Under the pieces are notes generated by a model. The model saw only the letters and a list, made by a program, of their open reading frames with translations, ran no database searches and had not been told where the DNA came from. The translations under genes and the position numbers were made by a program. A stretch of 64,000 bases of DNA from a virus: the IMG/VR virus record IMGVR_UViG_3300024344_002756, one strand, 5' to 3'. Below, piece after piece: positions 10,197 through 57,953 of the stretch. The first letter of the stretch is position 1. Each line of letters begins with the position of its first letter.

Positions 10197-10214
10197 TATG
10201 AAAGGTAAATAATT

Positions 10215-21924: not shown

Positions 21925-21934
21925 GGAGATCATA

Positions 21935-37277: not shown

Positions 37278-37752
37278 CTCAAATAAGTTAGATCAAAAAG
37301 AGCTTGAAGAAAAGCTAGTTCATTCTCATTATGGATTGGTTGTTTCTCAAGCTCTTTATTTTTTAGATGATCCTAATTTTGAGGACTATATTCAAGCAGG
37401 TCTTATTGGACTGCTTAAAGCAATTAGAAAATACGATAAAAACAAATCTAAGTTTAGCACGTATGCTTCTGTTTGTATAAGAAACGAAATTAGTAACTTA
37501 AACAAAAAAGCAACAAAGCATGCAGTAAAAAATTCTAGATCTGTCACAGAACAAGATAAGCAGTATAATAAACAAGAGGTTTTGGATGAATGTATTCCAG
37601 AGTTTCTATCGGAGGAAAACAAGTTTATAATTAAACTAAGGATTCAGGGATATACAAATTTAGAAATATCTAATTTTATGTCATGCTCTAAGGCCGAAGT
37701 AAAAGAAAAGATAGAGTTAATTATAAAGCTGTTGAAAGACTATAACGAATGA
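37177..37752 (+). CDS. Second sigma70-family sigma factor; start codon uncertain
   Basis: LVHSHYGLV, EDYIQAGLIGLLKAIRKYD, KFSTYASVCIRNEI, GYTNLEISNFM; the only in-frame ATG before region 2 is 37177, inside ssb. Confidence 0.85.
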   Translation: MATKGFQQNSESKNSSSLTPLEKKKCLNKNSLVNSNKLDQKELEEKLVHSHYGLVVSQALYFLDDPNFEDYIQAGLIGLLKAIRKYDKNKSKFSTYASVCIRNEISNLNKKATKHAVKNSRSVTEQDKQYNKQEVLDECIPEFLSEENKFIIKLRIQGYTNLEISNFMSCSKAEVKEKIELIIKLLKDYNE

Positions 37753-39380
37753 GAAAAAAAAGAATACTCTTTTGTGGCGAAGCAACATATCTTAACACTG
37801 GGTACGCAACATACCTTCGTGAAGTCATGAAGCGACTTCATGCAACAGAAAAGTATGACCTAGCTGAGTTTGCAAGTTATGGAGAATTAAAAGATCCTAG
37901 AGCAAAAACTGTACCTTGGAAATTCTACGGCAATTTACCAGACGACGAAAGCCAACAAGAAAGATACGATTCATTACCAACTAATCAGTTTGGTGAATGG
38001 AAATTTGAATCTGTGCTTTTAGATTTTCAGCCGGATATAGTATGTGATATACGAGACTTTTGGATGTTTGAGCATCAAGAAAGATCTCCGTATAGACCGT
38101 ATTTTCACTGGGTTGTCATGCCCACTGTTGATGCTGCGCCTCAAAATGAACAATGGTTGTCAACCTTTGAAAGTGCTGATGCTGTATTTAGTTATTCAGA
38201 CTGGGGACATGAAGTCCTTGAGAAAGAATCAAATGGTAGCATTAAATGTTTAGGATCTGCTCCACCATCTGCTGATGCAGCTTATATTCCGGTAGAAGAT
38301 AAAGCCAAGCATAAAGAAAGTATGGGCTTTGAGGAAAACATTAAGTTTATTGGCACTGTGATGAGAAACCAAAGAAGGAAGCTATTCCCAGACCTCTTTG
38401 AGTCTTTTAGAAAGTTTCTCGATCTAAGCGGTAGAAATGATGTTTGGCTTTACTGCCACACCAGCTTCCCAGACTTAGGATGGGACATACCAAAACTATT
38501 ACTAAGATATAATTTGTCGAGCAAGGTTGTTTTCACTTATATCTGCAATAAGTGCGGTCATACTTTCCCAGCTTTCTTTTCTGACGCCAGAAGAAAATGT
38601 CAAGCTTGTGGTTCTTTTTCGGCAGGTCTAGCAAGCGTACAAAAAGGAGCGTCTTATGACTACCTTGCTAGTATTATGAACCTCTTTGATCTTTATATAC
38701 AGTACGCCAATAGCGAGGGCTTTGGTCTTCCCCAAGTAGAAGCCGCTGGCTGCGGAGTTCCTGTCATGAGTGTTGATTACTCAGCCATGTCTAGCGTTGT
38801 TAGAAAGCTTGGTGGAACACCACTAAAACCCAAGGCACTTTACAATGAACTAGAGACGGGTTGCAATAGAGCGGTTCCTGATAATGACTATACAGCTCAG
38901 AAGATAGAAGAATTTTTTAAACTAAGCGACGAAGACAGAAAAAGCTTGGGTAAAAACTCAAGACTTAACTTTGAAAAATATTACCAGTGGGACAAAACAG
39001 CCAAAAAGTGGGAAGACCACTTCGATTCAGTTGAAATAAAACCAGACGAAGAAACTTGGAAGTCTCCACCTCGAATACACCAACCAGTTAACAATGTTCC
39101 AGCAGGGTTATCAGCGTCTCAATACGCAAGATGGTTAATCGTTAATGTTCTGGGAGAGCCTGAAAAACTGAACACATTTTTTGAGTCAAGACTGATAAGA
39201 GACTTGAATTATGGAATGTTTGTCATGGGTACAGGAGATTCTTACCTTAACGAAGATTCCTATAAGTTTGTAAGACCTCAATTTGAAAAGTTTGAAAAAG
39301 AGGATGCTCACAAAATGATGGTCAACATGTGCAATAAACGCAATCAATGGGAAGCCATAAGAAAAGAAAATATCAAATGA
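37749..39380 (+). CDS. GT4 glycosyltransferase with an internal zinc ribbon
   Basis: TGYATY, RNQRRK, CNKC...CQAC insert, SEGFGLPQVEAAGCGVPV. Confidence 0.85.
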   Translation: MRKKRILFCGEATYLNTGYATYLREVMKRLHATEKYDLAEFASYGELKDPRAKTVPWKFYGNLPDDESQQERYDSLPTNQFGEWKFESVLLDFQPDIVCDIRDFWMFEHQERSPYRPYFHWVVMPTVDAAPQNEQWLSTFESADAVFSYSDWGHEVLEKESNGSIKCLGSAPPSADAAYIPVEDKAKHKESMGFEENIKFIGTVMRNQRRKLFPDLFESFRKFLDLSGRNDVWLYCHTSFPDLGWDIPKLLLRYNLSSKVVFTYICNKCGHTFPAFFSDARRKCQACGSFSAGLASVQKGASYDYLASIMNLFDLYIQYANSEGFGLPQVEAAGCGVPVMSVDYSAMSSVVRKLGGTPLKPKALYNELETGCNRAVPDNDYTAQKIEEFFKLSDEDRKSLGKNSRLNFEKYYQWDKTAKKWEDHFDSVEIKPDEETWKSPPRIHQPVNNVPAGLSASQYARWLIVNVLGEPEKLNTFFESRLIRDLNYGMFVMGTGDSYLNEDSYKFVRPQFEKFEKEDAHKMMVNMCNKRNQWEAIRKENIK

Positions 39381-40495
39381 AAGTTTTATACATAGGTTGC
39401 TATAGAGACGGTACTGGCTGGGGACAAGCCGCTACGGATTACATACTGGCGATGGATACTGCTGGAATTGATGTAGTTCCAAGGCCAATCAAGCTCAATT
39501 CTAATCAGATAAAAGTACCAGACAGAATTATAGAGTTAGAGAAGAAAGATAGCTCTGGCTGTAATATTTGCATACAACACATTCTCCCACATTTAATGGA
39601 ATACACCAATAAGTTTGATAAGAACATAGCCCTCTACGCCACAGAGACCAGCAATTTTATTGATTCTGGATGGTCTAGAAACATAAATCTTATGGATGAA
39701 GCGTGGGTCATAAACAACCAAATGGTTAAAGCCTCGCAAGATAGTGGTGTAGACATACCAATAAAGGTAGTTCCTCACGCCTGTGACTTTAACAAGTTTA
39801 CCAGAAGCTACAAACCATTCGAGCTATCCTCGACAGATAACACCTTCACTTTTTACACAATAGCTGACTTTAATAAAAGAAAAAACCTAGAAGCCTTCGT
39901 TAAAGCATTTCATGCTGAGTTTGATCCTTCGGAGCCGGTCTCCATAATGATTAAATCAAGCAAGTATGGACTGACTGATGAAGAGACTGCAATAAAGATT
40001 AGAGACCTCTGCAATCAAGTTAAGACAGGTCTTAAAAAATTCAAGAATCTGAGTGACTATAAAGAAGACTTGATAATCACAAGTTTTATTAGTAATGAAG
40101 ATATTTGCAGGCTACACAGCTTTGGAGATTGCTTTGTGATGCCTAGCTATGGGGAAGCTTGGTGTATACCCGCTTTTGATGCTATGGCTTTCGGTAAGAC
40201 CCCTATCTGTACGAACATTGGTGGTATGGCAGATTTTGTTGGGGATGGAGGATTTCTTGTAGAGGGTGTCATGGAACCTGTTTGCGATATGCTTGATACT
40301 TTTCCAGCCCTGTTTACGGGAAATGAAGACTGGTGTTCAGTTAGCATACAAGGATTAAGGGAGTGCATGCGACACGCTTATGAAGAAAGCTCTTCTCTTA
40401 AAAAGATGAAGGAGACAGGATTAAAGCGAGCATATGAATACTCCCATGAGAATATTGGTAACTTAATAAAGGATCTGTTAAATGGCGTTAGTTAG
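39377..40495 (+). CDS. GT4 glycosyltransferase
   Basis: GTGWGQA, NKRKN, MPSYGEAWCIPAFDAMAFGKTPI. Confidence 0.85.
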   Translation: MKVLYIGCYRDGTGWGQAATDYILAMDTAGIDVVPRPIKLNSNQIKVPDRIIELEKKDSSGCNICIQHILPHLMEYTNKFDKNIALYATETSNFIDSGWSRNINLMDEAWVINNQMVKASQDSGVDIPIKVVPHACDFNKFTRSYKPFELSSTDNTFTFYTIADFNKRKNLEAFVKAFHAEFDPSEPVSIMIKSSKYGLTDEETAIKIRDLCNQVKTGLKKFKNLSDYKEDLIITSFISNEDICRLHSFGDCFVMPSYGEAWCIPAFDAMAFGKTPICTNIGGMADFVGDGGFLVEGVMEPVCDMLDTFPALFTGNEDWCSVSIQGLRECMRHAYEESSSLKKMKETGLKRAYEYSHENIGNLIKDLLNGVS

Positions 40496-41519
40496 TCCGA
40501 TATCTCAAATTATTAGAGCCTCCACAAGGAAGCCAGATGAGAAGTTAAATATTCTCACCTTCCCTACGCACGAACGATATGAAACCATGCTTTCAAAGAC
40601 TGGTCATAATTTCTATGCGTATCGTGCAGAAGGTATCAAAGATTGGAACGAAACCTATGCTAAAACACCAGATAATTATGTGTTGCTAGATCCATCACTG
40701 GGCGATAGTCAAGTTCCAGAATACGTAGATTTTGATTTGGTTCTCTCGCAAAACAAATTTGGTCAATACCAAAAAGCTAAACAGCTCGCGCATCAACTTC
40801 ACCTACCATTGGTCAGTTTGGAACATACGCTTCCAATGCCGGAATGGGATGAAAACATCATGGGTCAAGTAAGAGAGATGAGGGGAGATGTCAATGTATT
40901 CATTTCAGAATATAGTATTAACGCTTGGGGGTGGGAGAATAGACTTCAAAGCTTTCTAAACAATGACACGTTTGTTATTACTCATGGTGTAGATACTGAA
41001 CTATTTTGCTCAAAAGAAGACGAAAGAAGCGACGAGATACTGTCGGTAGTTAACGACTGGATAAACAGAGACTGGTGCTGTGGCTTTAGTGTTTGGCAAG
41101 AAGTAATAAAAGGACTACCTTACAAGGTGGTTGGCGATACTCCGGGTTTGTCTGAACCAGCCGCTTCAACCGAAGGGCTTGTCGCCACCTACCAAAACAG
41201 CAGGATATTTTTGAATACATCAACTATATCCCCAGTTCCGACAGCTTTAATGGAAGCGATGTCTTGTGGTTGTGCGGTTGTATCAACCGCAACCTGCATG
41301 ATCCCAGAAGTTATAGAAAATGGAGTTAATGGTTTTATAACAAATAATGTTGGAGAAATGAAACAGTATCTTGTAGATCTATTAAATGATGAAGATATGG
41401 CAAAAGAAATTGGTGAAAACGCCAGAAAGACAATCTTAGAAAGATACTCTACAGAACGGTTTGTTGAAAACTGGGACAGGCTACTAACAAATTCAGCTAA
41501 AATAGTATTTAAGGGATAA
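40482..41519 (+). CDS. GT4 glycosyltransferase
   Basis: ITHGVDTELF, SPVPTALMEAMSCGCAVVS, ENGVNGF. Confidence 0.85.
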   Translation: MALVSPISQIIRASTRKPDEKLNILTFPTHERYETMLSKTGHNFYAYRAEGIKDWNETYAKTPDNYVLLDPSLGDSQVPEYVDFDLVLSQNKFGQYQKAKQLAHQLHLPLVSLEHTLPMPEWDENIMGQVREMRGDVNVFISEYSINAWGWENRLQSFLNNDTFVITHGVDTELFCSKEDERSDEILSVVNDWINRDWCCGFSVWQEVIKGLPYKVVGDTPGLSEPAASTEGLVATYQNSRIFLNTSTISPVPTALMEAMSCGCAVVSTATCMIPEVIENGVNGFITNNVGEMKQYLVDLLNDEDMAKEIGENARKTILERYSTERFVENWDRLLTNSAKIVFKG

Positions 41520-41520
41520 T

Positions 41521-41985
41521 ATGAAAATTAGAATTACGGTTGGTGACGACCAAAAGCTTAGTGGTTATCTAAATATAGACCCTATATCCAAATTTGACGA
41601 TTTATCAGTGGATATACGCAATCTTGATGAAGTCGCCTCAGACGCAGAATGTATGGAAATTCTTTCTGATGACGTAATAGATTACCTAGAAAAGGAAGAG
41701 TCTATGCGGGTTGTGTCTCACTGGGCTAAAAAGTTGAGGCATGGCGGCAAAATAATAGTAACATCAATAGACGCACATGAAGTTGCCAGATCGTTCTACA
41801 GAAAAGAAATAGACGTACAAACGTTTAACAAGGCTATTCATGGCAATTTTACTCAACCTTGGGATGTAAGACTTAGCCAAACAACACTAGAGGAGCTATC
41901 TAGCTTTCTTGAGTCTGTTGGTTTACAGGTCACTAAAAAAAGAATCAATGGCATTAAATTAGTAGTGGAGGCAGAAAGACCATGA
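41521..41985 (+). CDS. Class I SAM-dependent methyltransferase-like protein (short)
   Basis: GYLNID, DIRNL, VIDYL, LRHGGKI. Confidence 0.65.
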   Translation: MKIRITVGDDQKLSGYLNIDPISKFDDLSVDIRNLDEVASDAECMEILSDDVIDYLEKEESMRVVSHWAKKLRHGGKIIVTSIDAHEVARSFYRKEIDVQTFNKAIHGNFTQPWDVRLSQTTLEELSSFLESVGLQVTKKRINGIKLVVEAERP

Positions 41986-42794
41986 ATAACGAATTAGATA
42001 CAAATTTTGAGCAAGTAGAGCCTCAAAGACAAACTCTAACGACTTCTTGTAAAGATTGTATATTTGCTATTAAAGAAGATAAGTTACAAACAGGATGTTC
42101 ATTTGGAAGAATAGAAGCGTATTCTAATAGGGGTATCAATATTATAGAAGCAGAAGACTTAGAAGAAAACGAGTTTTTTGTACTTGAAACTTGGTGCAAT
42201 GCCTACAGGGAAGAGATTTGGAAAACAGCTAATGAGAAAGAGGGTGTAGAAAAAGCTCTCAGAAAAGAATTAGATCCCAAAGTTCAATTTATTATTATAA
42301 TTCAGGATAGCTTAGACGGTATAGAAAAGACCATAGAATCAGCCCTTAATCAAGAAGAATTTGCTGCTAAAAGATTAATATTTGTTAACAACAGCGAGTT
42401 ATCTTATTTTGAAGTGATAACAAAAATTAACGAAGTTGTTCCAGAGGGAACGGATTACAGAATTCAAGATATCAGAGGAGAACTCAGTGATCTTGAAGTG
42501 ATCGACGAAGCTTTTAATAATGTCTCAAATGGATACTATACGGTAATAGAATCTGGAAAAGAACTCCCATCAGATGTCATTAAAAAAATATACGCTGCAA
42601 TAAGTATAAAAATTCAAAAGGTAGGATATATAGAACCTACAGATGGTATTAACTTAATGACAGTACAAGCGGTTCTTCATAAGTTTTTATACGGAAACAG
42701 AGGTGCTTCCTTAAAAACAAAGTTAGAAGACGGGGAAGTTGCAGATAAAGTTAAAGAGGGAAACTCTCTAATTAGAAACTGGAATGAAATTTAA
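41982..42794 (+). CDS. Hypothetical protein with a degenerate GT-A-like domain
   Basis: CKDC N-terminal motif; IIIIQD...IEKTIESALNQ resembles a GT2 N-terminus. Confidence 0.5.
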   Translation: MNNELDTNFEQVEPQRQTLTTSCKDCIFAIKEDKLQTGCSFGRIEAYSNRGINIIEAEDLEENEFFVLETWCNAYREEIWKTANEKEGVEKALRKELDPKVQFIIIIQDSLDGIEKTIESALNQEEFAAKRLIFVNNSELSYFEVITKINEVVPEGTDYRIQDIRGELSDLEVIDEAFNNVSNGYYTVIESGKELPSDVIKKIYAAISIKIQKVGYIEPTDGINLMTVQAVLHKFLYGNRGASLKTKLEDGEVADKVKEGNSLIRNWNEI

Positions 42795-43588
42795 TGACAT
42801 TACCAACAGTTACTGTACTAATAGCGAACTATAACGATGAAGACTACTTAGACATTGCTATAGAAAGCGCTATTAACCAAGACTATCCCGGCCCATTAAA
42901 CATATGTATTGTAGACGATGGTTCTACAGATGGATCTTGGGGTATCATCGAAACCTACATTAAAAATCCTGCAAAAGATACCACCGAAAATGATTTAGAC
43001 ATAACCTTTTCTCAATACTCCGGTGGAAGATTTGGCAACACAAAAGTATACGCTATTAAAAATGAGAATAGTGGCCCAAGTGAAGCTAGAAATGTAGGCA
43101 TTAGATACATGATGGATAAAACAGAAATATTTGCCATCTTAGATTCTGATGATGAAATGTATGAAAATAAAATAACTGAATGCCTTCCAGTCTTTGAAAG
43201 AGGTGAAGGTATGGTTGGTGTAGTTTATGCAGACTACGACACATTGCATATGGACACAGGAAAAGTTATTAGAGAATATAAAGAGCCATTTAGCAGAAAT
43301 AGACTCACACAAGAATGTATAGTTCATAGCGGATCTTTAATTTCCAAAGAAGCCCTAGAAGAAATTTTGGAAGAAACTGGCTATTACGATAACACAATGA
43401 GAACTTGTGAAGATTATGATCTTTGGATGCGAATAAGTGAAAAGTTTATTATAGCCCATGTTCCCAAGGCGCTTACCAGAGTAAGGGTTACTGGAGACAA
43501 CTCTTCTTTTATTGTCAATCAAGAAACTTGGCAAAAAAATTGGAGAAGGGTCATGGAAAAAATGCAAGCAAGAATAAATGCCAAATAG
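42794..43588 (+). CDS. GT2 glycosyltransferase
   Basis: VTVLIANYN, IVDDGSTD, ARNVG, LDSDD, EDYDLWMR. Confidence 0.92.
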   Translation: MTLPTVTVLIANYNDEDYLDIAIESAINQDYPGPLNICIVDDGSTDGSWGIIETYIKNPAKDTTENDLDITFSQYSGGRFGNTKVYAIKNENSGPSEARNVGIRYMMDKTEIFAILDSDDEMYENKITECLPVFERGEGMVGVVYADYDTLHMDTGKVIREYKEPFSRNRLTQECIVHSGSLISKEALEEILEETGYYDNTMRTCEDYDLWMRISEKFIIAHVPKALTRVRVTGDNSSFIVNQETWQKNWRRVMEKMQARINAK

Positions 43589-44285
43589 GTTTACGACAAC
43601 AGTAAAGAAAATAGGCGCTGGAACAGCTCCAGAAAAACCGCTGACAGTAATAATACCTGTTGCGGGCATGGGTCATAGAATGAAATCTTATGGCCCAAAG
43701 TGCTTACTGCCTGCAAATAAAAAAGAAACTATACTAGAGAAAACAATCTCTAATATAGAAAGGGAATATCCCTATTCTGATATTATTGTTGTAGCTGGGT
43801 TTGAATCAGAAAAAGTAATCAAAACCCTACCACAAAGCGTAAGGGTTGTTGAAAACTATCAGTATGAATCAACCAATATTGCCGAAAGCATAAGAATTGG
43901 CATTAATGCCGCAGCGAATAAGCACCTTCTTATTGTTTATGGAGACTTGGTTTTTAATGTCTACTCTATTAGAGATATAACATCAGACGGCCCATGTGCA
44001 GTTGTAGACTCTAAAGAAAGATTTAAAGAAGATGAAGTAGGGGTTACAGTAGTCGATGAAAACATAACTAATTTTGCTTACGGGCTTCCTAAAAAATGGT
44101 CGCAAATAGCTTACTTTGAAAATAAGTCTTTTGACATTTTAAAAGAATTATGTTCAGACAAAAGAAAAAGTAAACTGTATCCTTTCGAGCTGTTTAACAT
44201 AATTATTAATAGCGGCATATCAATGAAGGCAAAGGAGCCATCCGGTATGCTAATAAAAGAAATTGATTCACTAAAGGATCTATGA
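43578..44285 (+). CDS. Nucleotidyltransferase (LicC/sugar-phosphate NTP-transferase-like)
   Basis: IPVAGMGHRMKSYGPKCLL, VYGDLVF, EID. Confidence 0.82.
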   Translation: MPNRFTTTVKKIGAGTAPEKPLTVIIPVAGMGHRMKSYGPKCLLPANKKETILEKTISNIEREYPYSDIIVVAGFESEKVIKTLPQSVRVVENYQYESTNIAESIRIGINAAANKHLLIVYGDLVFNVYSIRDITSDGPCAVVDSKERFKEDEVGVTVVDENITNFAYGLPKKWSQIAYFENKSFDILKELCSDKRKSKLYPFELFNIIINSGISMKAKEPSGMLIKEIDSLKDL

Positions 44286-44434
44286 TGGGTACTCTTTGGG
44301 CGTATGTAAATAACAATTACAAGTGGTATGCATGGTATTATCTTGAAGGCGAAATTCAGGTTAAACTAGGGCCGTTTTGCAAACAAGAAGAAGCTATGGA
44401 AGCAGCGAAAAATTATGAAAATTCTAATAAGTAG
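44282..44434 (+). CDS. Small hypothetical protein (50 aa), absent from the ORF track
   Basis: MMGTLWAYVNNNYKWYAWYY...LGPFCKQEEAMEAAK; ATGA overlap with the upstream gene. Confidence 0.55.
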   Translation: MMGTLWAYVNNNYKWYAWYYLEGEIQVKLGPFCKQEEAMEAAKNYENSNK

Positions 44435-45464: not shown

Positions 45465-45465
45465 A

Positions 45466-49524: not shown

Positions 49525-50197
49525 AATTTTCATTGGCTGGGATTCTAGAGAGGTAAATGCCTACAAAGTTTGCGTAGAATCTTTACTAAAGCACTCTTCA
49601 GAAGAGCTTGATATTACGCCTATCGTAAGAGAAAACCTCATGGATACGGGTGAGTATTTTAGAGAGCAGCCAGAGGCAGGTTCTGTAGAATTTACCTATA
49701 CTCGATTTTTAACGCCTTACTTGGCTGAATACAAAGATTGGGCATTATTTATAGATTGTGATTTTTTGTTTACGCAAGATGTAGCTAAATTGTTCAGTTT
49801 TGCAAACGATAAATACGCATTAATGTGTGCTAAACATGATTATGTTCCTAAAAACTCAGTCAAAATGGACGGGCAAAAGCAAGTTGCTTACCCTAGAAAA
49901 AATTGGTCTAGCTGCATTTTGTGGAATTGTGGACATCCAATGAATAGTCTTTTAACCCCAAAAACCACAAGTGAATGGACAGGTGCTTATCTTCATCGCT
50001 TTATGTTTCTAAAAGATAATATGATTGGTGAAATTCCAATAGAGTGGAACTGGCTAGAAGGTGAGTATAATAAAGAAGAATTTGAAGACACATACAAAAG
50101 ACCACCTTCTGCTATCCACTTTACAAATGGAGGGCCGTGGTTTGATAATTGGCAAGATGTAGACTATGCAGATTTGTGGAGAAGCTATTCATCATGA
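49514..50197 (+). CDS. GT8-related glycosyltransferase
   Basis: IFIGWDSRE, FTYTRFL, FIDCDFL, YPRKNWSS, HFTNGGPW. Confidence 0.8.
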   Translation: MALKIFIGWDSREVNAYKVCVESLLKHSSEELDITPIVRENLMDTGEYFREQPEAGSVEFTYTRFLTPYLAEYKDWALFIDCDFLFTQDVAKLFSFANDKYALMCAKHDYVPKNSVKMDGQKQVAYPRKNWSSCILWNCGHPMNSLLTPKTTSEWTGAYLHRFMFLKDNMIGEIPIEWNWLEGEYNKEEFEDTYKRPPSAIHFTNGGPWFDNWQDVDYADLWRSYSS

Positions 50198-50976
50198 TAC
50201 TATACGTTACCTCGTTTAATGAAAATCTTTTTAACGCTACCGGCAAAAAAATGCTAGAGTCTTTTGTTTATGTAAAAACAGAAGGTCACATGCTTGCAAC
50301 TTACGAAGGTAACGTTGATTTACCAAAACACAGAAAAATTACCCCATGCTCATTAGATGACAACTCGTTTTTGCATGACTGGCTGGAAGACAACGCCGAT
50401 GTAATACCAAAAGAACTTGGTGGTGAGTTTTCTGGAGAAATGGATAAATACAATTTTAGAGCAAGTCAATGGTTTAGAAAAATAGTAGCGCTCAAGGAAG
50501 CGTTAAAATATAAGGATGATTACGAAGCGGTTGTATTTGTAGACTCCGATGTTAGATTCAAACGCAAGCTTACAGAAGAGTTTATGCTATCTATGTTTGG
50601 TGATACCGCAATGTTTTATCACCTTGGGCCTTTTAGAGAAGAAGCAGACGCAGGAATAGAGTCTGGGTTTATAGGATTTCACATGAAGAATGGCGGTGTT
50701 GATTTTCTAGAAACTGTATTTTCTAAGTTTAAAGACAAGAGCTATAGAGAATATAGACGTTGGGATGATAGTTATGTGTTCCACAATACCGTCAAAGAAA
50801 GATCAGATCTAAAATATACGGACGTAGTTCCTGTTTTTAGTAGAGAAGAAATGATGAAGCCCGGAGCTGGTGGTTGTGGTCATGTAATTCACCGTGGGCC
50901 TTTTGCTCCATATCTAAAACATCTCAAGGGTGTTCACTGGCAAAAACATGGGGTCGAATTTAAAGATGAAGCCTAG
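50194..50976 (+). CDS. Putative GT-A glycosyltransferase
   Basis: WFRKIVAL, FVDSD DxD motif, ESGFIGF, WDD, HLKG. Confidence 0.6.
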   Translation: MILYVTSFNENLFNATGKKMLESFVYVKTEGHMLATYEGNVDLPKHRKITPCSLDDNSFLHDWLEDNADVIPKELGGEFSGEMDKYNFRASQWFRKIVALKEALKYKDDYEAVVFVDSDVRFKRKLTEEFMLSMFGDTAMFYHLGPFREEADAGIESGFIGFHMKNGGVDFLETVFSKFKDKSYREYRRWDDSYVFHNTVKERSDLKYTDVVPVFSREEMMKPGAGGCGHVIHRGPFAPYLKHLKGVHWQKHGVEFKDEA

Positions 50977-51748
50977 AGTAACCTTTTTAGTTGCAGATAC
51001 TAAACTTAAATCTCATAAAGCCGCCCACATTTTTAAAAAAGGCTATGGGCGCTGCAACATAATGCTTTCTGACGAATGGGTAAAATATTCAAAACAAGGA
51101 ATATATCCAAAAGACTTAGCTACTTATGGAATACTAATTGGTCAATATAACGACAAAGGAGAGTTTATAAAAAGAGCCAGAAAGAAATCCAAAAACTTTT
51201 GGCATATTGATCATGGATATTTCCTTAGATCCTCATCGACAACTTCTTTTGATGGTTATTTTAGAATAGTCAGAAATAATTTGTGGAACGATGTATCCGA
51301 AAAAGACCATTCTTGGGATAGGTTCAATTCCTTCAATATAAAAATGAAAGACTTAAGAAAAAATGGAAATCACATAGTAATAATAAAACCGTCTGTTTAT
51401 ATGACAAAATACTTTCCTATTCTAGATGACTGGCTTGGCACAACAATCAACAATCTTAAACAGCACACAGATAGGAAAATAGTAGTGTCAACAAAGAATG
51501 ACAATCCTTTATCTGAGTGCCTGAAAGATGCTTGGTGTGTCGTAACGGATCATTCAAACGCAGGTATTGAATCTATGATTAATGGAATACCTGCAATATT
51601 CACAAATGAAACTAGAAAAAATGGAGAGCTGTCTCAGGTAGAAGACCCACCTTTTGACAGAAGTTTTTTTAAAGATTTAGCTCATTGTCAATGGAACACA
51701 GAAGAAATTATGGGAGGTGACCCTTGGGAAGATACAACAAGTTACTAG
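50966..51748 (+). CDS. Capsule-polysaccharide-synthesis-like (GT-B) protein
   Basis: IDHGYF, LKDAWCVVTDHSNAGIESMINGIPAI. Confidence 0.55.
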   Translation: MKPRVTFLVADTKLKSHKAAHIFKKGYGRCNIMLSDEWVKYSKQGIYPKDLATYGILIGQYNDKGEFIKRARKKSKNFWHIDHGYFLRSSSTTSFDGYFRIVRNNLWNDVSEKDHSWDRFNSFNIKMKDLRKNGNHIVIIKPSVYMTKYFPILDDWLGTTINNLKQHTDRKIVVSTKNDNPLSECLKDAWCVVTDHSNAGIESMINGIPAIFTNETRKNGELSQVEDPPFDRSFFKDLAHCQWNTEEIMGGDPWEDTTSY

Positions 51749-52287
51749 AAGAAGTAGCAAAGCGACAACCAAAAACAATAGTAGAAGTAGGCACTCATAT
51801 GGGAATGAGTGCTGTTCGCATGATTGAGGAAGCTCAAAAATTCAATGATGATGTCTTCTATTATGGATTTGATCTTTTTGAATACATGACTGAAGAATAT
51901 AAAAAATACGAATTTCATGGCAAAAGCAATTGTAATTTCGCAGAACCCACCAAGAAACTTAAAAAGACAGGATGTGAATATAAATTAAAGGGTGGTAATA
52001 CGAGGAAAACCCTTAAGAAGTTCGATCCAGACAGACAAATCGACTTTGTTTTTATTGATGGTGGCCATTCGGTAGAAACCATACAAAGCGACTGGGATAA
52101 TATTAAGAGACTGATGGACGACGAAACTGTAGTTATATTTGATGACTACTATGAAAACAGAGATGATGTGGGTTGTAAAAAAGTCATAGAAGAAATGTCT
52201 GAAGATTACAACGTGACCTTATTAGATCCAGTAGATTATATCGAGAAGAATGATCTATACATAAGGTTTGTAAAGGTAACCAAATGA
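51724..52287 (+). CDS. Class I SAM methyltransferase (Methyltransf_24-like)
   Basis: VEVGTHMG, YGFDLF, FIDGGHS, IFDDY. Confidence 0.85.
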   Translation: MGRYNKLLEEVAKRQPKTIVEVGTHMGMSAVRMIEEAQKFNDDVFYYGFDLFEYMTEEYKKYEFHGKSNCNFAEPTKKLKKTGCEYKLKGGNTRKTLKKFDPDRQIDFVFIDGGHSVETIQSDWDNIKRLMDDETVVIFDDYYENRDDVGCKKVIEEMSEDYNVTLLDPVDYIEKNDLYIRFVKVTK

Positions 52288-53324
52288 AAAAGGGAGTCAT
52301 GTGGATTGGTAGAAAGGGAAGGTCTGTAGAGTCAATAGGCTTTGCTGACAAGCAGTTCATTCAGTGGATATACAAAGAAACTCCCTTTAACGTTCTTGCA
52401 GACACAGTTTATGACAGCACTCAATTTAGCATAAAACAAAATCGTTTGTACTTCAGGGATTCTTTGTTAAGAATGTCTGATTACGACACAGCCATATTTT
52501 CCTTTAATGCAGAATGGATAACTAAAGAAAACTATAAAAAAATAGAAGAGGTTTATTACTGGATAAAAGAAAATACCGAATGTGAAATAATCAATAAGCT
52601 ACCAGACTTTAAAAGAGATGCACAGAAAGAAAAATACTTTAGCCAACTTAAAATAAACAATATACAAGTTCCAAACTACAGCATAATAAACAAAAAAGAA
52701 GACCTGCTAGGGGTAAAGTTTCCCTATATAATAAAGTTCAATAATATTCACCAATGGAAAAAGGTTCACAATATTGAAGAGGCTGAAAAATATTATAAGT
52801 TATTATCTGAATCCTTAAGGAAAGATCAGTTACAGGAAGGATTAAAATATTATGAGAAATTTTCAGACATAAAATTTTCTTCCTTGCGGTATGACACAAA
52901 GATAATTGCTGTGGAATTTATTGATAATTTTAATGGCAAGTATTGCTCTGCTTCATCCGTGTCTTTTATTAAAGGGGAAATGTTTTATCAGTACAGTCTT
53001 TGCTGCCCTGAAAGAGGAGTGGACGCTATTCATATAGCAGACGTAACTAACTTTGATTTTTTTAGAGCTGGCCAGTTAGAGCTAGAGGAAGTTATCAATT
53101 CCAATAAAGAGGCTTTCAAAAGAGTTGCGAGATTGTCTTTAGACACCGCAAAAATAGACTTCTTGATTGTTGATGGAAAACCTGTGTTCTTAGAACAAGG
53201 GTTAAAATTTGGAACATCGTTTAATGCAATCAGGTCTCTAGAGTCACATTACCCTAAGATGAAAGAAAAACGTTCGCATCAAAATATGTTAAATATGATA
53301 TCAAGGAGATCTCATGGGTCATAA
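52284..53324 (+). CDS. ATP-grasp-fold ligase-like protein
   Basis: FPYIIK, AVEFID, AKIDFLIVDGKPVFLE. Confidence 0.6.
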   Translation: MKKGVMWIGRKGRSVESIGFADKQFIQWIYKETPFNVLADTVYDSTQFSIKQNRLYFRDSLLRMSDYDTAIFSFNAEWITKENYKKIEEVYYWIKENTECEIINKLPDFKRDAQKEKYFSQLKINNIQVPNYSIINKKEDLLGVKFPYIIKFNNIHQWKKVHNIEEAEKYYKLLSESLRKDQLQEGLKYYEKFSDIKFSSLRYDTKIIAVEFIDNFNGKYCSASSVSFIKGEMFYQYSLCCPERGVDAIHIADVTNFDFFRAGQLELEEVINSNKEAFKRVARLSLDTAKIDFLIVDGKPVFLEQGLKFGTSFNAIRSLESHYPKMKEKRSHQNMLNMISRRSHGS

Positions 53325-53691
53325 AACACTAACTGGCGCTATTCAAGGAAAGTTTTGGGGAACAACAAGATGCTTCTTTGAAAATTGCTCATCTGAAGTT
53401 CATTACATAGAAGCAAATAAAGGCGGTTTCTGCTCTAGGCATCATCATGCAAATAAATGGAACAGATTTATTGTGCTAGAAGGAGCTTTGAAGGTTATAA
53501 TATATAAGCAGGATAGTGAAGATGAGACAATATTAACTGATGGTATGTTTTCAGATGTTCCTCCCGGTGTAGATCATCGCTTTGAAGCCTTGGAAAACAC
53601 TAAGGCTTTGGAAGTTTATTGGGTTGATGGACTTGATCCTTCTGACATAGTGAGAAAAGACTCCGGTGGACTTAAAGCTGAAAATAAATAA
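53314..53691 (+). CDS. Cupin-fold protein (possible sugar isomerase/epimerase)
   Basis: KFWG, CSRHHH..KWNRFIVLEG, VPPGVDHRF. Confidence 0.78.
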   Translation: MGHKTLTGAIQGKFWGTTRCFFENCSSEVHYIEANKGGFCSRHHHANKWNRFIVLEGALKVIIYKQDSEDETILTDGMFSDVPPGVDHRFEALENTKALEVYWVDGLDPSDIVRKDSGGLKAENK

Positions 53692-54325
53692 ACCAATTTT
53701 AGTCGTTGGTTCTGGATTTTCAGGAAAGGTAAACACAGAAGATTTTTTTGTTTTGTGTAGCGGAAAATCCCTATACTCTTTGGATTATGCAGATGTTGTT
53801 ATCTCATTGGATTTAATTAGGATCATTCATAATATATCTAACTTTAGAAAGAGATGGGGAATTCACCTAGTACCACACAGAATAACAAACGAACAATGGT
53901 TTGGTAGATCAAGTGGAATAATGCAAAGAGAGTCTGGAGAAGTTGTTTATTTGAAAAGTCCAGTTCACTCCCTGATGTTTTGGAGACCGGATGAGTTTGT
54001 CTACCTTAATGAAACAAAGGGGCGATTTGATAAACTGAATATCTGTTGTGATTCACTTTCATATGAAGATGCAAATAAAATAATAAACTTCCCAAGGTTT
54101 AAAGTTAAAAAATTTTTACGAGAAGATACGGTTAGCTACAGTGATTTTGGAAATAAGGATGGTGTCTTAAGAAATAACTCTAGTAGTATACATTTAATAT
54201 TAAATTTACTATGGTTAAATAAAGTTAATAAGATATATACTTTGGGGGTAACAGAAGATCACTATAGCTGGAATGTAACAAAGCGTCTTATGGATATGTA
54301 CAACATTAGTTATGAGAGGTTATAA
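53666..54325 (+). CDS. Hypothetical protein (possible glycosyltransferase-like Rossmann domain)
   Basis: ILVVGSGFS N-terminus; SSSIHLIL...IYTLG C-terminus. Confidence 0.5.
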   Translation: MDLKLKINKPILVVGSGFSGKVNTEDFFVLCSGKSLYSLDYADVVISLDLIRIIHNISNFRKRWGIHLVPHRITNEQWFGRSSGIMQRESGEVVYLKSPVHSLMFWRPDEFVYLNETKGRFDKLNICCDSLSYEDANKIINFPRFKVKKFLREDTVSYSDFGNKDGVLRNNSSSIHLILNLLWLNKVNKIYTLGVTEDHYSWNVTKRLMDMYNISYERL

Positions 54326-54326
54326 A

Positions 54327-54800
54327 ATGTTATTTATCTCACACCGAGGAAACACGAATGGCCCAAAGTCATCGTTGGAGAATACCGAGGGATACATTAA
54401 AGCGGCTCTGAATAAGCGTTACTTTGTTGAAGTAGATGTCTGGAAAATTAAAGACAATTGGTTCTTAGGACATGACGGGCCACAATATGCAACGACCGAA
54501 GAATTCATTTCTCAGCCATTTTTGCTTCTTCATGCAAAGAACCTAGAAGCTTTTAAGTCAATGCTTAGCTTAGAATTACATTGCTTTTGGCATCAAGAGG
54601 ACTTTTACACACTAACAAGTCGTGGGATTATTATAAGTTATCCGGGTTATGCTTCAGGCGAAGATACAATTTGTATGCAACCTGAGTTACTATCTATGGA
54701 CACGGTCTCTAATGCGTATGCAATATGCTCTGACTATGTTGATTTATTTAAAAATATAAAAAAAGAAGAAAGATCAATTGGCTTTAATGAAACACGATGA
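54327..54800 (+). CDS. Small GDPD/PLC-like phosphodiesterase-fold protein
   Basis: ISHRGN, ENT, VEVDVW, LGHD, HAKN, ICSDY. Confidence 0.65.
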   Translation: MLFISHRGNTNGPKSSLENTEGYIKAALNKRYFVEVDVWKIKDNWFLGHDGPQYATTEEFISQPFLLLHAKNLEAFKSMLSLELHCFWHQEDFYTLTSRGIIISYPGYASGEDTICMQPELLSMDTVSNAYAICSDYVDLFKNIKKEERSIGFNETR

Positions 54801-55590
54801 TGTAACTCTTGTTTTGCAAGGGCCAATAGAAAAAGGAAAGCTAGGAACCTACCTAGTTGCTGGAATGAAGAATTTAAAATATTATTCTGAAACAGCCAAA
54901 ACCATTATATCCACTTGGAAAGGAGCTGAACTAAAACCATCAAAAAGATTTCTAGCTAAATACAATATTGATATTATAGAAGCAAGCGAAGATCTTTATA
55001 AAAACATGTATCGTGATGCCAACATGAACTTTCAAGTAGCATCCACTCTAAATGGGCTAAAAAAAGTAAAAACTAAATATGTGATCAAGCTTAGATGCGA
55101 TGAATCTTTCAGTGACTTATCGAAATTTATACAAAAAATAAAAGACAATCCAGAAAAAATAGTTACAACAAACATATTCTTTAGCAAGAACAGTTATGAT
55201 CCGTTTCATCCATCGGATCATGTTATTGGCGGCACAACAGAAAATATGAAAAGCATGTTTGGTTATGCTTTTAAGGTTTGTCAAAAGGAAAACACAAACA
55301 AACGACTAAACGCAGATTATTTTGGAGTTCCAAATTTAATTAATCGTGATGGAGACAATGGGCTTTCTCCAGAAACATTTTTATGTTTTTGTTATTTGAT
55401 ATCTAAAGGTATTGCACTTGATCTCAATAAGAGTGTAGAAATAATGAAAGAAAACTATGAGATTGTACCCCTAGAAGACATGGGAAAATTTCATTGCAAA
55501 TATGACATATCAGTAATCGACAATACAAATTATGACTTTTATCTAAACAACCTGCCACAAAATTTCTTACGATCTATGAATGATCTATAA
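54787..55590 (+). CDS. wavE: WavE-like LPS synthesis protein
   Basis: LVLQGPI, IISTW, NFQVASTLNGL, YVIKLRCD, FHPSDH. Confidence 0.7.
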   Translation: MKHDDVTLVLQGPIEKGKLGTYLVAGMKNLKYYSETAKTIISTWKGAELKPSKRFLAKYNIDIIEASEDLYKNMYRDANMNFQVASTLNGLKKVKTKYVIKLRCDESFSDLSKFIQKIKDNPEKIVTTNIFFSKNSYDPFHPSDHVIGGTTENMKSMFGYAFKVCQKENTNKRLNADYFGVPNLINRDGDNGLSPETFLCFCYLISKGIALDLNKSVEIMKENYEIVPLEDMGKFHCKYDISVIDNTNYDFYLNNLPQNFLRSMNDL

Positions 55591-55607
55591 TTTATAAGGA
55601 CACAAGA

Positions 55608-56543
55608 ATGACAAAAATCTTAGTGACGGGAGGTGGCGGTTATGTTGGTAACGTTCTATGCCGACACCTTCTCGATAAAGGCTACAGAGTAAAGTGCGTT
55701 GACAACTTTCATAAGGGTCAATGCGATGCCATAATCCCATTAGCTACAAATCCTAACTTTGAATTTGAGTATGGGGATGTTACCGTTCTAGAACAAATGA
55801 AGGAGGCTGTTCTTGGGTGTGACGCTATTATTCATCTCGCTGCTATTGTTGGCTTTCCGGCTTGCAAATCCCAACCTGCGCTGGCTACGGCAGTAAATGT
55901 AGAAGGTACTAGAAACATGCTCTTCGCAAGAGCAGCTTATAACCCAGATATGCCTTTCGTTTACGCCTCCACAGGCAGCGTCTATGGCAAAGTAGAGGGT
56001 ATTTGCACAGAAGAGTCCCCACTGAACGCCGTGTCTCTGTACGGGCTAAATAAGCGCGTTGCAGAGGAGATGGTAGCCAGTCAAAACAACACTGTTTCTT
56101 TTAGGTTCGCTACTGGATTTGGTGTTAGCCCATGTATGCGGGTGAACTTGCTCGTAAACGACTTTGTTTATCAGTCCTTGACGAATGGTATTCTTACTAT
56201 TTTTCAAGCAGATTTTCGTAGAACATTTATCCATGTTAGAGATATGGCAAAAGCCTTTACTACGGGTGTTGAAAACATGGGAAATTGGAAACATAAGGTT
56301 TATAATTGTGGTGCTAATCACCTTAATTGGACAAAAAGAGAGCTTGCAGAATATGTAAAAAAGAAAACAAACTGCTTCGTTCATTATGAAGAAATTGGAA
56401 CAGACGCTGACCAAAGAGACTATGAAGTTAGCTATAATAAATTAGAGGATGAGGGCTTTGTATGTGATGTAGATATGAAGACAGGAATCAAAGAACTAAT
56501 CAAGGTAGCACCAATCTTACAAATAAGGCATCAGTATTCATGA
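55608..56543 (+). CDS. NDP-sugar epimerase/dehydratase (extended SDR)
   Basis: TGGGGYVG, HLAAIVG, ASTGSVYG, YGLNK, RTFIHVRD. Confidence 0.9.
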   Translation: MTKILVTGGGGYVGNVLCRHLLDKGYRVKCVDNFHKGQCDAIIPLATNPNFEFEYGDVTVLEQMKEAVLGCDAIIHLAAIVGFPACKSQPALATAVNVEGTRNMLFARAAYNPDMPFVYASTGSVYGKVEGICTEESPLNAVSLYGLNKRVAEEMVASQNNTVSFRFATGFGVSPCMRVNLLVNDFVYQSLTNGILTIFQADFRRTFIHVRDMAKAFTTGVENMGNWKHKVYNCGANHLNWTKRELAEYVKKKTNCFVHYEEIGTDADQRDYEVSYNKLEDEGFVCDVDMKTGIKELIKVAPILQIRHQYS

Positions 56544-57493
56544 TAGACATAAATGGTTCTAGAGTTTTAATTACTGGCGGTGAAGGTTTTCTTGGTTCAG
56601 CTATTGCTGCCAAAGTGAAAGAAAAGGGTGGCGAGCCAATAATCCTTAGACATAAAGAAGTTAATCTTCATGATCTAAATGCAACTATTCAGTTCTTAAC
56701 AACAGTAAAGCCTGATCTTTGTATTCATGCTGCTGGATACAATGGTGGTATAGAGTTTAATAGAATGTATCCTGCCGACATCTTTTATTCAAATACTGTG
56801 ATGGGATTGAACATTCATCATGCTTGTGAATATATTGGTGTAAAAAAAGTTCTATCAATTATGACATCATGTGCATATCCAGATACAGGAATGGATATAT
56901 TAAGCGAGGAGACGTTTTGGGATGGACTTCCCAACAAAACAATTAGAGCGCACGGTATAGCAAAAAGAACCTTGCAGATTGCAGCAGAAGCTTATAACGA
57001 TCAATATGAACTTAATGCAGCTACAGTTTGTGTTACAAATCTATACGGCCCAAATGACACATTTAACTTGGTTAGAACTAAGGTTGTTGGAGCTTTAATA
57101 AGAAAATTTGTAGAAGCTGTAATTGAGGAAGAAGATACGGTAGAGTGTTGGGGAACAGGCGCTCCGATGAGAGAATTTATGTATGTTTATGATGCAGCAG
57201 AAGCTATTATACAAGCTCTGGAAAAATACGATGATCCTTCTATACCCCTCAATATAGGAACGGGCAAAGACATCAGTATAAAAACTCTGGTAGAATATAT
57301 ATCTAAAGCCGTATCATACAAAGGCGAGGTTTTTTGGAATACGGAAAAACCTGATGGTCAAATGAAAAAACTACTTGATACAACTAGAATGAAAGACTAT
57401 GTAGAAATAGAATCCGTAGAAGTTGAAGAAGGCATAAAGCAAACTGTAGAATGGTACATAAACAATAAAGCAGAAGCAGATGCAAAAAAATAA
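56540..57493 (+). CDS. fcl: GDP-L-fucose synthase-like epimerase/reductase with altered catalytic residues
   Basis: GGIEFN..YPADI, TSCAYP, NLYGPND, WGTGAPMREFMYV, KPDGQ; HGIAK replaces YxxxK. Confidence 0.85.
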   Translation: MIDINGSRVLITGGEGFLGSAIAAKVKEKGGEPIILRHKEVNLHDLNATIQFLTTVKPDLCIHAAGYNGGIEFNRMYPADIFYSNTVMGLNIHHACEYIGVKKVLSIMTSCAYPDTGMDILSEETFWDGLPNKTIRAHGIAKRTLQIAAEAYNDQYELNAATVCVTNLYGPNDTFNLVRTKVVGALIRKFVEAVIEEEDTVECWGTGAPMREFMYVYDAAEAIIQALEKYDDPSIPLNIGTGKDISIKTLVEYISKAVSYKGEVFWNTEKPDGQMKKLLDTTRMKDYVEIESVEVEEGIKQTVEWYINNKAEADAKK

Positions 57494-57953
57494 ACAACTT
57501 GGTTTTATGATAGAAGAGTCTAGCTCTAGCCAGCTATCATTTAATCTTATAAGAAACATAAATGAGTATGTGACTGAGAATCAAGATGACTTTGTTGTGT
57601 TTTTTGAAAACTCTACAGCAAATGTCATAAATCCAGAATTCTCATTTATGTCTTTAAGTGAAATATGGAATTTTCAAGGGCATCTGTTTGCCACCACTAT
57701 TTCTACAGCGATGTCATTGAAAAAATGCTTTGCCACGGAACAAAAATACTTTTACGTTTGGGACTTAGAATGGACTAGAAGACACGGAAGAAATTTTGAA
57801 TCTACAATTCAAGCTTTCACAGACCCTACAATAAAATTAATAGCAAGAAGTAAGGAACATGCAGTTGCTATTAAGAACTATTGCAACAGAGATGTTGACG
57901 GAATAGTTAGTGACTTTAACATAGAAAAATTAATGAGGATAACAAATGAGTAG
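57480..57953 (+). CDS. Hypothetical protein (possible GT-B N-domain fragment)
   Basis: 157-aa coupled ORF. Confidence 0.6.
   Translation: MQKNKQLGFMIEESSSSQLSFNLIRNINEYVTENQDDFVVFFENSTANVINPEFSFMSLSEIWNFQGHLFATTISTAMSLKKCFATEQKYFYVWDLEWTRRHGRNFESTIQAFTDPTIKLIARSKEHAVAIKNYCNRDVDGIVSDFNIEKLMRITNE

Follow-up and report, generated by a model that had tools for sequence, protein, structure and literature searches.

A soluble glycan-assembly island in an uncultured marine phage lineage, built as an expansion of a three-gene core

The viral record IMGVR_UViG_3300024344_002756 of IMG/VR, analyzed here as a window of 64,000 nucleotides, carries a glycan-biosynthesis island of approximately 20 kb at positions 37749-57953. 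The original prediction had described such an island, and the present analysis confirms it as 24 co-oriented and mostly overlapping genes. Judged by gene content and order, the island has grown from a core triad, which consists of a zinc-ribbon glycosyltransferase of family 4 (GT4), a glycosyltransferase (GT) of the GT-A fold with a four-cysteine (Cys4) module, and a nucleotidyltransferase. Taken together, the predicted functions show that the phage encodes soluble enzymes to make nucleotide sugars and to assemble a glycan step by step. Comparison of loci shows that one lineage has enlarged the triad to 12-20 kb, in part by a strain-variable cassette and a module that cyanomyoviruses also have. 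Glycosylation of the phage's own virion is tentatively taken as the best reading of the system.

The zinc-ribbon GT4 (37749) has a CxxC...CxxC zinc ribbon inserted in its C-lobe and a helical C-terminal extension. In the family alignment its cysteines are invariant and the EX7E region is visible, and the structure model reaches a pLDDT of 89. The nearest solved structure is B736L of chlorovirus NY-2A (E 9e-18), followed by phage and giant-virus GT4s in BFVD. The structural neighbours also include MshA, BshA, GlgM, sucrose-phosphate synthase, and methylmannose-polysaccharide mannosyltransferase, and there is a weak Pfam match to GT4-conflict. The GT-A-fold enzyme (41982) has an AlphaFold model with a pLDDT of 90.9, with which Foldseek retrieves heparosan synthase, WrtF, TarS/TarP, and SpsA at E ~1e-6. 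Both core transferases carry Cys4 zinc modules. The third member (43578) has only sub-threshold matches in NCBIfam, to MocA, GlmU, and IspD, and presumably activates a sugar or polyol phosphate.

Conservation was counted over the 29 loci of the DnaE lineage that reach far enough to be informative. The GT4 is present in every one of them, the GT-A enzyme in 27, and the nucleotidyltransferase in 26. The site is fixed as well, the triad standing always directly downstream of the genes for DnaE, SSB, and the sigma factor. In the near clade, the first seven island genes are found in all 19 loci, including the two further GT4s (39347 and 40482), neither of which occurs in the far clade. The far clade, with DnaE 35-49% identical, has only ~4.5 kb at the same locus. 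Its order is sigma factor, zinc-ribbon GT4, GT-A enzyme, nucleotidyltransferase, sometimes a GDPD-like gene, and then the same right-flank genes as in the window.

Within the GT4 itself, the acceptor-side N-lobe of the far-clade proteins is 50-52% identical and the donor-side C-lobe 48-53%, so that the N-lobe is at least as conserved as DnaE. Since the N-lobe is as conserved as the C-lobe, one clade-wide acceptor is argued for rather than variable host glycans. The family is abundant: at least 2,533 clusters are present in public metagenomes, with members in Tara, JGI, and ENA data. The top-ranked matches all have a length of ~545 residues, and the largest contigs carrying them reach 177 kb. 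One homologue, A0A497B8P6 (rank 3 among the AlphaFold DB cluster matches), contains a homing-endonuclease domain of the DOD type and probably hosts an intein. An intein is unusual for a glycosyltransferase and fits the GT4 being essential to these phages.

All 24 open reading frames (ORFs) of the island lie on the plus strand. Of their junctions, 22 of 24 overlap or abut, and gaps occur only at 44285-44415 and 55590-55608. The Pfam assignments in the following list are above the gathering score unless noted.

37141..37752, plus strand: sigma-70 region-2 factor, the kept left flank of the island (Pfam Sigma70_r2, E 1e-14)
37749..39380, plus strand: GT4 of 543 amino acids (aa), GT-B fold, core gene 1 (Pfam Glycos_transf_1)
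39347..40495, plus strand: GT4 (Pfam Glycos_transf_1, E 3e-13)
40482..41519, plus strand: GT4 (Pfam Glycos_transf_1, E 6e-17)
41521..41985, plus strand: 154-aa protein, weakly similar to S-adenosylmethionine methyltransferases (family profile against PDB: methyltransferase 3hnr, E 0.014; no Pfam match)
41982..42794, plus strand: GT-A-fold glycosyltransferase with an N-terminal four-cysteine hairpin, core gene 2 (no Pfam match; structure model)
42794..43588, plus strand: GT2 (Pfam Glycos_transf_2, E 4e-23)
43578..44285, plus strand: nucleotidyltransferase of the MobA/IspD/GlmU-N type, core gene 3 (Pfam IspD, 27.1 bits against a cut-off of 27, and NTP_transferase)
44415, plus strand: CgeB-like GT (Pfam Glyco_trans_1_2, E 2e-22)
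45454, plus strand: epimerase/dehydratase of the short-chain dehydrogenase/reductase (SDR) type (Pfam Epimerase, E 5e-31)
46422, plus strand: GT-B-like protein of 338 aa (ESM Atlas features, nearest to viral Glyco_trans_1_2 / RXYLT1_C clusters)
47438, plus strand: GT25 (Pfam, 28.9 bits)
48148, plus strand: fusion of a beta-PGM-type HAD domain and NTP_transferase (Pfam)
49514, plus strand: GT8-like (Pfam, 30.6 bits)
50149 and 50930, plus strand: two cassette genes without family assignment
51724, plus strand: Methyltransf_24 (Pfam)
52284, plus strand: ATP-grasp, RimK-like (ESM Atlas model search, TM-score 0.68-0.75 to RimK-like clusters)
53314, plus strand: cupin (Pfam)
53666, plus strand: gene without family assignment
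54312, plus strand: mini-GDPD, phosphodiesterase-like (family profile with the HRG..E.N..E.D..HD GDPD motif; GDPD 7e0v, E 7e-4)
54778, plus strand: WavE-like (Pfam)
55608, plus strand: SDR, GalE/4,6-dehydratase-like (Pfam Epimerase, E 4e-37)
56540, plus strand: SDR, GDP-L-fucose-synthase-like, the pair spanning 55608..57493 (Pfam Epimerase, E 8e-45)
57480..59657, plus strand: right flank, with a 157-aa protein (57480), an HNH/homing-endonuclease-like protein of 262 aa (57946), and a HeH/LEM-domain protein (58734) (PHROGs, Pfam)

At least ten island genes are glycosyltransferase-like by Pfam, NCBIfam, or Foldseek. The inventory given originally (three GT4s, GT2, GT25, GT8-like, CgeB-like, WavE-like, nucleotidyltransferases, SDRs, a cupin, an ATP-grasp protein, and a phosphodiesterase-like protein) is essentially right. 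The two methyltransferases claimed with it are half accounted for: 51724 lies in the island, the second clear one (59931) falls outside its range, and 41521 is weak, its likeness to methyltransferases being a lead only. The assignment of 46422 as GT-B-like, taken from Atlas features, is likewise a lead. The claim that the pathway is self-contained also stands, with soluble enzymes and its own sugar activation by two nucleotidyltransferases, one of them HAD-fused. In NCBIfam, 56540 reaches 249 bits with GDPFucSynFcl, under the 500-bit cut-off, and 55608 and 56540 probably make a 6-deoxyhexose jointly. Several searches returned little: 50149, 50930, and 53666 showed no relation to the GT-A profile in hhalign, single-sequence PDB searches with 46422, 52284, and 54312 gave nothing useful, and among ten unassigned island proteins PHROGs matched only 54312 (phrog_34507) and 57946 (HNH-like matches). 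Megablast of the island against cultured phages gave no match.

The borders of the island are well kept. The stop of the sigma gene 37141 overlaps the first GT gene, and the sigma gene stands upstream of the GT4 in 26 of the 29 informative relatives. On the right, the genes at 57480-59657, which are probably not glycan enzymes, come directly after the mini-island in far-clade loci, and 57946 together with the HeH/LEM gene (57946-59657) holds the same position in both clades at 36-82% identity. Because this position is kept across both clades, the HNH-like gene is not regarded as a mobile insertion. Within the island, a scan for sigma-70 promoter-like sites found 52 against 62 expected, and 17 terminator-like sites were found against 11 expected, ~2 standard deviations above shuffles.

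How the triad was enlarged can be followed in the relatives. The source record is 71 kb (G000) and 47% complete by CheckV, and three relatives were fetched whole: G001 (99.9 kb, 66% complete), G002 (161 kb, 100%), and G003 (136 kb, 90%). In close relatives the island is complete and in unchanged gene order, with aa identities of 40-93%. Genes 44415, 45454, and 46422 are kept in all three relatives, and the SDR pair 55608/56540 in G001 and G002. G002 retains only 37749-47438 and 55608-57953, without the inner block 47438-55590. This inner block has a GC content of 0.35-0.36, as against 0.38-0.40 elsewhere, and part of it is shared with cyanophages. Homologues 59-62% identical to 48148 occur in S-CAM9, S-PRM1, B3/B23, and other Synechococcus myoviruses, where they also stand among transferases, and 48148 has 543 relatives in IMG/VR. 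The GDPD-like gene 54312 is 38-39% identical to genes of S-CAM9 and B23 within their GT islands and travels with 48148 in 71 of 80 loci. The stretch from the GT8-like gene to the cupin is occupied by a cassette (50149-53324) whose content changes from strain to strain. It has four genes here (50149, 50930, Methyltransf_24, and ATP-grasp) and six in G001, and only 50149 is clearly common to both at full length. Such a cassette-like swap within an otherwise syntenic island suggests diversifying selection on an exposed glycan.

The island was predicted to contain no multi-transmembrane protein and no signal peptide, and a hydropathy scan agrees. The scan (Kyte-Doolittle, 19-residue window, cut-off 1.6) is crude, yet it would not miss proteins with at least eight transmembrane segments. 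No segment at or above 1.6 occurs in the island ORFs except a stretch in the Rossmann core of the SDR 55608, and no transmembrane segment or signal peptide is seen. When every ORF of G000, G001, G002, and G003 was scanned, none had more than four hydrophobic segments, and the few small multi-transmembrane ORFs match no flippase, permease, or transferase family in Pfam. Export and initiation genes are thus absent beyond the island as well: Wzx-, Wzy-, ABC-, and WecA-like proteins were found neither in the island nor in the window nor in the three relatives, which are 66-100% complete. As for a Gtr system, GtrA is not matched by the lineage's only 4-transmembrane ORF (G001 983-1510), and no membrane GT was found. 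The complete relatives have no ligase-like, GtrA/GtrB-like, or other membrane partner.

Further glycan genes lie elsewhere in the window, and some of them form a second small cluster at 2179..5880.

2179, plus strand: GT47/RXYLT1-like, opening the second cluster (Pfam)
3257, plus strand: GT4 of the second cluster (Pfam)
4356-5054, plus strand: soluble phosphatase of the PAP2 superfamily, directly after 2179/3257 (Pfam, E 3e-14)
5023, plus strand: conserved gene of the second cluster without family assignment
16047..17018, plus strand: GDP-fucose-synthase-like SDR (Pfam Epimerase; NCBIfam Fcl, 136 bits)
59931..60596, plus strand: CmcI / rhamnosyl-O-methyltransferase-like methyltransferase (Pfam Methyltransf_24 and RMNT_CmcI; NCBIfam RhmsylMtase sub-threshold)

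The hydropathy scan found no transmembrane segment in the second cluster. G002 has homologues of 2179, 3257, and 5023, and the PAP2 gene is not conserved there. PAP2 enzymes with undecaprenyl pyrophosphate or lipid A as substrate are normally embedded in the membrane. The methyltransferase 59931, which lies beyond the island, is strain-specific and has no homologue in G001.

Two families in the window are candidate acceptors for the glycan.

60647..61357, minus strand: Gly/Ser/Thr-rich protein of 236 aa, 22% Ser+Thr, last gene of the converging virion/fibre module
9072..11243, plus strand: paralogous pair of 374 and 342 aa, 24% Ser+Thr, beyond the virion module

The 60647 family is 76-81% identical in G001-G003, where it also stands at the end of the fibre module, and a viral-contig scan with it returned close relatives only. 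The pair 9072/10215 has the C-terminus ...FDF.TFTNNYKDYSA..G in common, and shorter homologues occur in G001-G003. Neither 60647 nor 9072 has a tblastn match in cultured phages or a match in PHROGs or Pfam, and 10215 likewise matches nothing in Pfam or in cultured phages. The original prediction had named 9072, 10215, and 60647 as Ser/Thr-rich virion acceptors. Their composition does not support this, being only 22-24% Ser+Thr without mucin-like tracts: no 40-residue stretch above 45% Ser+Thr exists in any ORF of G000-G003, and the candidate acceptors have 20-27% overall, as is usual for fibre proteins. Their status as virion proteins is mixed in the case of 9072/10215, which lie beyond the structural module, while the 9072 family has a promoter-like motif of the virion type.

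This motif is the 9-mer GTGTATAAT. In G002 it is enriched ~seven-fold, with 11 copies against 1.5 expected. Eight copies stand 36-90 nt upstream of same-strand genes: five belong to the virion module, and the homologues of 60647 and 9072 are preceded by one copy each. The pattern is alike in G000, G001, and G003, and the window positions are 6531, 8988, 19544, and 3977 (plus strand) and 61393 (minus strand). An exact copy stands 36-41 nt upstream of the 60647 family in all four genomes, and the motif also precedes 9072 and, in G002 and G003, the homologues of 9072. The motif fits a promoter for the phage's own sigma factor, 7862 or 37141, and it places the 60647 and 9072 families in one promoter class with the virion genes. 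In none of the genomes G000-G003 does it occur within the island, which therefore appears to be transcribed with the replication genes.

From these features, the island would operate as a cytoplasmic glycan assembly line that is expressed together with the replication genes. The triad would start the glycan on an acceptor identical across the clade, and the added transferases would extend it to a methylated hetero-oligosaccharide with 6-deoxyhexose and a strain-variable outer part. The likeliest acceptor would be one of the phage's own virion proteins, which would receive its sugars in the cytoplasm while particles are being assembled or earlier, as happens in chloroviruses, mimiviruses, and some mycobacteriophages. 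A virion protein is favoured because the core is fixed clade-wide with a conserved acceptor domain, while the outer part varies like an exposed structure. It is also favoured because no membrane partner is found in the complete relatives and the known DNA routes are absent, and because the closest solved relative of the GT4 is a chlorovirus transferase. Moreover, the island adjoins the end of the fibre module, where the 60647 family has its virion-type motif. CgeB-like and SpsA-like families glycosylate spore surfaces from the mother-cell cytoplasm. Several points weigh against a virion acceptor. The acceptor proteins are candidates only, and no protein of the four genomes has mucin-like Ser/Thr tracts or C-terminal tags, which is unlike mycobacteriophages. 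The island appears to belong to a replication/early transcription unit and not to a virion operon. The structural neighbours of the 37749 model include GTs for small molecules (MshA, BshA, and sucrose-phosphate synthase), and GT25, GT8, WavE, and GT4 are typical of the lipo-oligosaccharide core, with lipid-linked acceptors. The step from a lack of export genes to a non-lipid acceptor is also weak, because GT4, GT8, GT25, and WavE enzymes normally act peripherally on lipid-linked acceptors and the host could both supply and export these. Furthermore, the homologous islands of cyanophages and pelagiphages have been read, likewise putatively, as changing the host surface (PMC12801897, PMC7029224).

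Remodelling of the host envelope is accordingly the alternative that has to be weighed most closely, and it is possible, if on the unlikely side. Here, the soluble GTs would act at the inner face of the host membrane on host lipid A-core or undecaprenyl-linked units, and the host's initiating enzyme and its MsbA, Wzx, or ABC transporter would deliver the altered glycan. The changed surface could block superinfection or stop progeny from re-adsorbing. GT25, GT8, WavE, GT4, and GT2 are core and O-antigen families, which are peripheral and free of transmembrane segments in bacteria too, and a place in the replication transcription unit fits the need to act before lysis. The module of HAD-NTP-transferase and GDPD is common with cyanomyovirus islands that have been so read (PMC12801897, PMC7029224), the variable cassette resembles serotype cassettes, and a PAP2-family phosphatase adjoins the second GT cluster. 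On the other hand, this phosphatase has no transmembrane segment and is not conserved in G002, and the complete relatives have no GtrA/GtrB-like, ligase-like, or other membrane partner. A triad fixed over a deep clade with a conserved acceptor-side domain would be unexpected for a fast-evolving host glycan, and devoting 20 kb to nothing more than a short-lived alteration of the host surface would be costly for a lytic phage. Envelope remodelling stays a strong rival because of the missing Ser/Thr tags, the non-virion operon, and the GT families of lipid-linked type.

The position of the triad also brings the phage DNA into consideration. The zinc-ribbon GT4 triad is embedded among genes for replication and nucleotide metabolism: DnaE, SSB, and the sigma factor immediately precede it, DNA-binding-like genes lie on its other side, and a T4-gp1-like dNMP kinase, dUTPase, and dCMP deaminase are nearby. 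The triad might glycosylate phage DNA, or a DNA-bound or packaged protein, and so evade host nucleases. The Cys4 zinc modules on both core transferases would suit this, and phage DNA GTs have been recruited from lipopolysaccharide and teichoic-acid families (bioRxiv 10.1101/2023.12.21.572611). Every described route of DNA glycosylation needs either a ThyA homologue (for 5-hydroxymethylcytosine (5hmC), 5-hydroxymethyluracil (5hmU), and 5-hydroxycytosine (5hoC); PMC13326640) or a C5-methyltransferase with TET (bioRxiv 10.1101/2023.12.21.572611). As originally claimed, no base-hydroxymethylase or TET/JBP gene is seen. ThyA (PF00303) gave 0/6 matches and C5-methyltransferase (PF00145) 0/5, each with a working control, and both are absent from G000-G004, including the 100%-complete relative; TET_JBP (PF12851) gave 0/5 in a search that had no positive control. 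G002 encodes an ordinary ThyX. Known DNA glycans have 1-3 sugars, as against at least ten transferases, methyltransferases, and an ATP-grasp ligase here. DNA glycosylation by known chemistry is hence unlikely, modification of DNA or nucleoprotein by the triad is on the whole highly improbable, and there is but a slim chance that the triad writes sugars on phage DNA or a DNA-bound or packaged protein without a ThyA-type hydroxylase or a methyltransferase/TET pair. If it did, it would represent a new class of glycosylation, directed at nucleic acid or nucleoprotein, which one lineage elaborated into a complex glycan. The product could also stay soluble, either as free oligosaccharide or polysaccharide or as a small molecule bearing sugar, for example a compatible solute, a cofactor of the thiol type, or a storage glycan with methyl groups. 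Alternatively, a host protein could be glycosylated so that metabolism is redirected or a defence is blocked. MshA, BshA, GlgM, sucrose-phosphate synthase, and the methylmannose-polysaccharide mannosyltransferase, the neighbours of the GT4, all use soluble cytoplasmic acceptors, and the lack of export machinery and the weak GT4-conflict match agree with this. Yet the strain-level cassette swaps and the transferase families, at least ten, point to a complex exposed hetero-glycan, and we know of no phage precedent for making such a soluble product. Together, these two variants are quite improbable.

The phage that carries the island has a genome of about 150 kb by CheckV and by its relatives. 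It had been called a jumbo phage, which is not upheld, because 71 kb corresponds to 47% and the relatives of 136 and 161 kb to 90-100%. The last 456 bases of the window (63545-64000) lie beyond the end of the 71,019-bp record. The module upstream of the island encodes a class II ribonucleotide reductase, dCMP deaminase, dUTPase, PhoH, RecA, DnaB, DnaG, dNMP kinase, a PD-(D/E)XK nuclease, a split DnaE, SSB, and the sigma factor. The end of the virion/fibre module, on the other strand, converges on the island from downstream. DnaE is split into two genes (a PHP+NTPase half and a finger+HhH half; window 32458-36847) with an RNase T-type exonuclease gene between them, an arrangement kept in 46-63 related loci. 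A nucleotide-salvage set comprises a nucleoside 2-deoxyribosyltransferase-like gene (G000 6379-6948, weak match), dCMP deaminase (19050-19544), dUTPase (21869-22405), and the T4-gp1-like dNMP kinase (30164-30925). No thymidylate synthase is seen in the source record, which is 47% complete; 22409, considered as ThyX after a tblastn match in cyanophage B23, was ruled out, being PhoH by Pfam. Other early-region genes encode proteases, namely a matrixin (M10, 1288-1989), a ClpP-like protein (7180-7857), and an M19 dipeptidase (13192-14415). Near its left end, G002 encodes a MotA/ExbB/TolQ-like proton-channel protein (11191-11739, E 8e-8).

The lineage is remote from phages in culture. DnaE has less than 35% identity to any INPHARED phage, and the G002 terminase at most 30% to any cultured phage. 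Nearly identical copies of the island sequence are present in marine plankton metagenomes of other studies, and the clade has been sampled globally. A DUF1501 gene is present at window 3-680 (full gene G000 6917-8155), and its best genomic homologues, at 43-47% identity, are almost all from marine Planctomycetota and Verrucomicrobiota. The planctomycete host proposed originally is therefore plausible in a wider form, as a PVC (Planctomycetota/Verrucomicrobiota) host, on the similarity of this gene.

To our knowledge, glycan islands have been noted in marine phages for twenty years, and in no case has the target been determined. For mycobacteriophages and giant viruses, glycosylation of the virion is proven. 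Marine myovirus islands without export genes are already known (PMC12801897, PMC7029224). What is new here is that the carriers are uncultured, abundant, and of a different phage backbone, that the island has an architecture of core, expansion, and cassette at a fixed locus of the replisome module, and that genes are directly shared with cyanophages. The lineage provides a cleaner handle than the cyanophage islands, with the GT4 at one locus in every informative member and nearly all with both partners. An old open question is thereby reduced to a three-gene problem that is approachable without culturing the phage. If the particle is the target, common ocean phages would join mycobacteriophages and giant viruses as carriers of complex virion glycosylation, and this would matter for adsorption, for the stickiness of particles and carbon export, and for how grazers recognize them.

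Among known systems, a Wzx/Wzy- or ABC-dependent O-antigen or capsule locus differs, as the proteins it requires are found neither in the island nor in the window nor in the three relatives. The Bacillus spore (CgeB, SpsA-L; exosporium BclA) has the same Pfam and fold families, soluble GTs, and a particle assembled inside the cell. Spore-surface glycosylation in Bacillus uses no lipid carrier, and its sugars are deoxy and methylated. However, the spore is a system of cellular differentiation, and the likeness is one of families.

Giant viruses, namely chlorovirus PBCV-1/NY-2A and Mimivirus, glycosylate their capsids or fibrils autonomously (PMC4691112, PMC9614988, PMC5408694). They resemble the present system in having virus-encoded soluble GTs and nucleotide-sugar enzymes, 6-deoxyhexose synthesis, and sugar methylation, in needing no host ER/Golgi or lipid-carrier step, and in a similar cluster size. 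The nearest solved structure of the GT4, B736L, is also theirs, at only 16% identity and with an acceptor of its own that is not established. In contrast to these viruses, the carrier here is a tailed phage of ~150 kb with a bacterial host, and its virion glycan is putative. In the mycobacteriophages Che8, Corndog, and Myrna, according to Freeman et al. 2023 as cited in PMC12619734 and PMC12801897, phage cytoplasmic GTs are proposed to decorate the phage's own structural proteins. As these citations describe them, the mycobacteriophage systems have one to few GTs and Ser/Thr-rich C-terminal tags on capsid or tail-tube proteins. The present island instead combines at least ten GTs with genes for sugar synthesis and stands in the replication module, and tag-like tracts are not seen.

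Phage DNA glycosylation is similar in that GT genes stand among replication and nucleotide genes and a dNMP kinase is present. T-even phages carry glucosyl-5hmC. Other examples are the arabinosyl-5hoC of RB69/DLP3 (PMC13326640) and the methyltransferase/TET-dependent clusters (bioRxiv 10.1101/2023.12.21.572611). The present system differs by lacking a ThyA homologue and C5-methyltransferase and by having far more GTs and tailoring enzymes.

The 'LPS-like' (lipopolysaccharide-like) islands of T4-like cyanophages and pelagiphages, such as S-SCSM2R, S-SCSM1, P-SSM2, S-CAM9, and B23 (PMC12801897, PMC7029224), are marine, contain GT2, GT4, GT8, GT11, and GT25 with nucleotide-sugar epimerases, and have no export genes. 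Direct homologues of 48148 and 54312 link S-CAM9 and B23 to the window at the identities given above. The backbone here, with a split DnaE alongside DnaB, DnaG, and RecA, is not T4-like (Kyanoviridae-type). Moreover, the cyanophage genes are scattered in a hypervariable fibre region, whereas the present island has a fixed locus and the clade-wide triad as its anchor. It is also dense, since at least 12 transferase-like genes stand in 64 kb, compared with 13 over the entire S-SCSM2R genome, that of a T4-like cyanophage grouped with genomes of >200 kb (PMC12801897).

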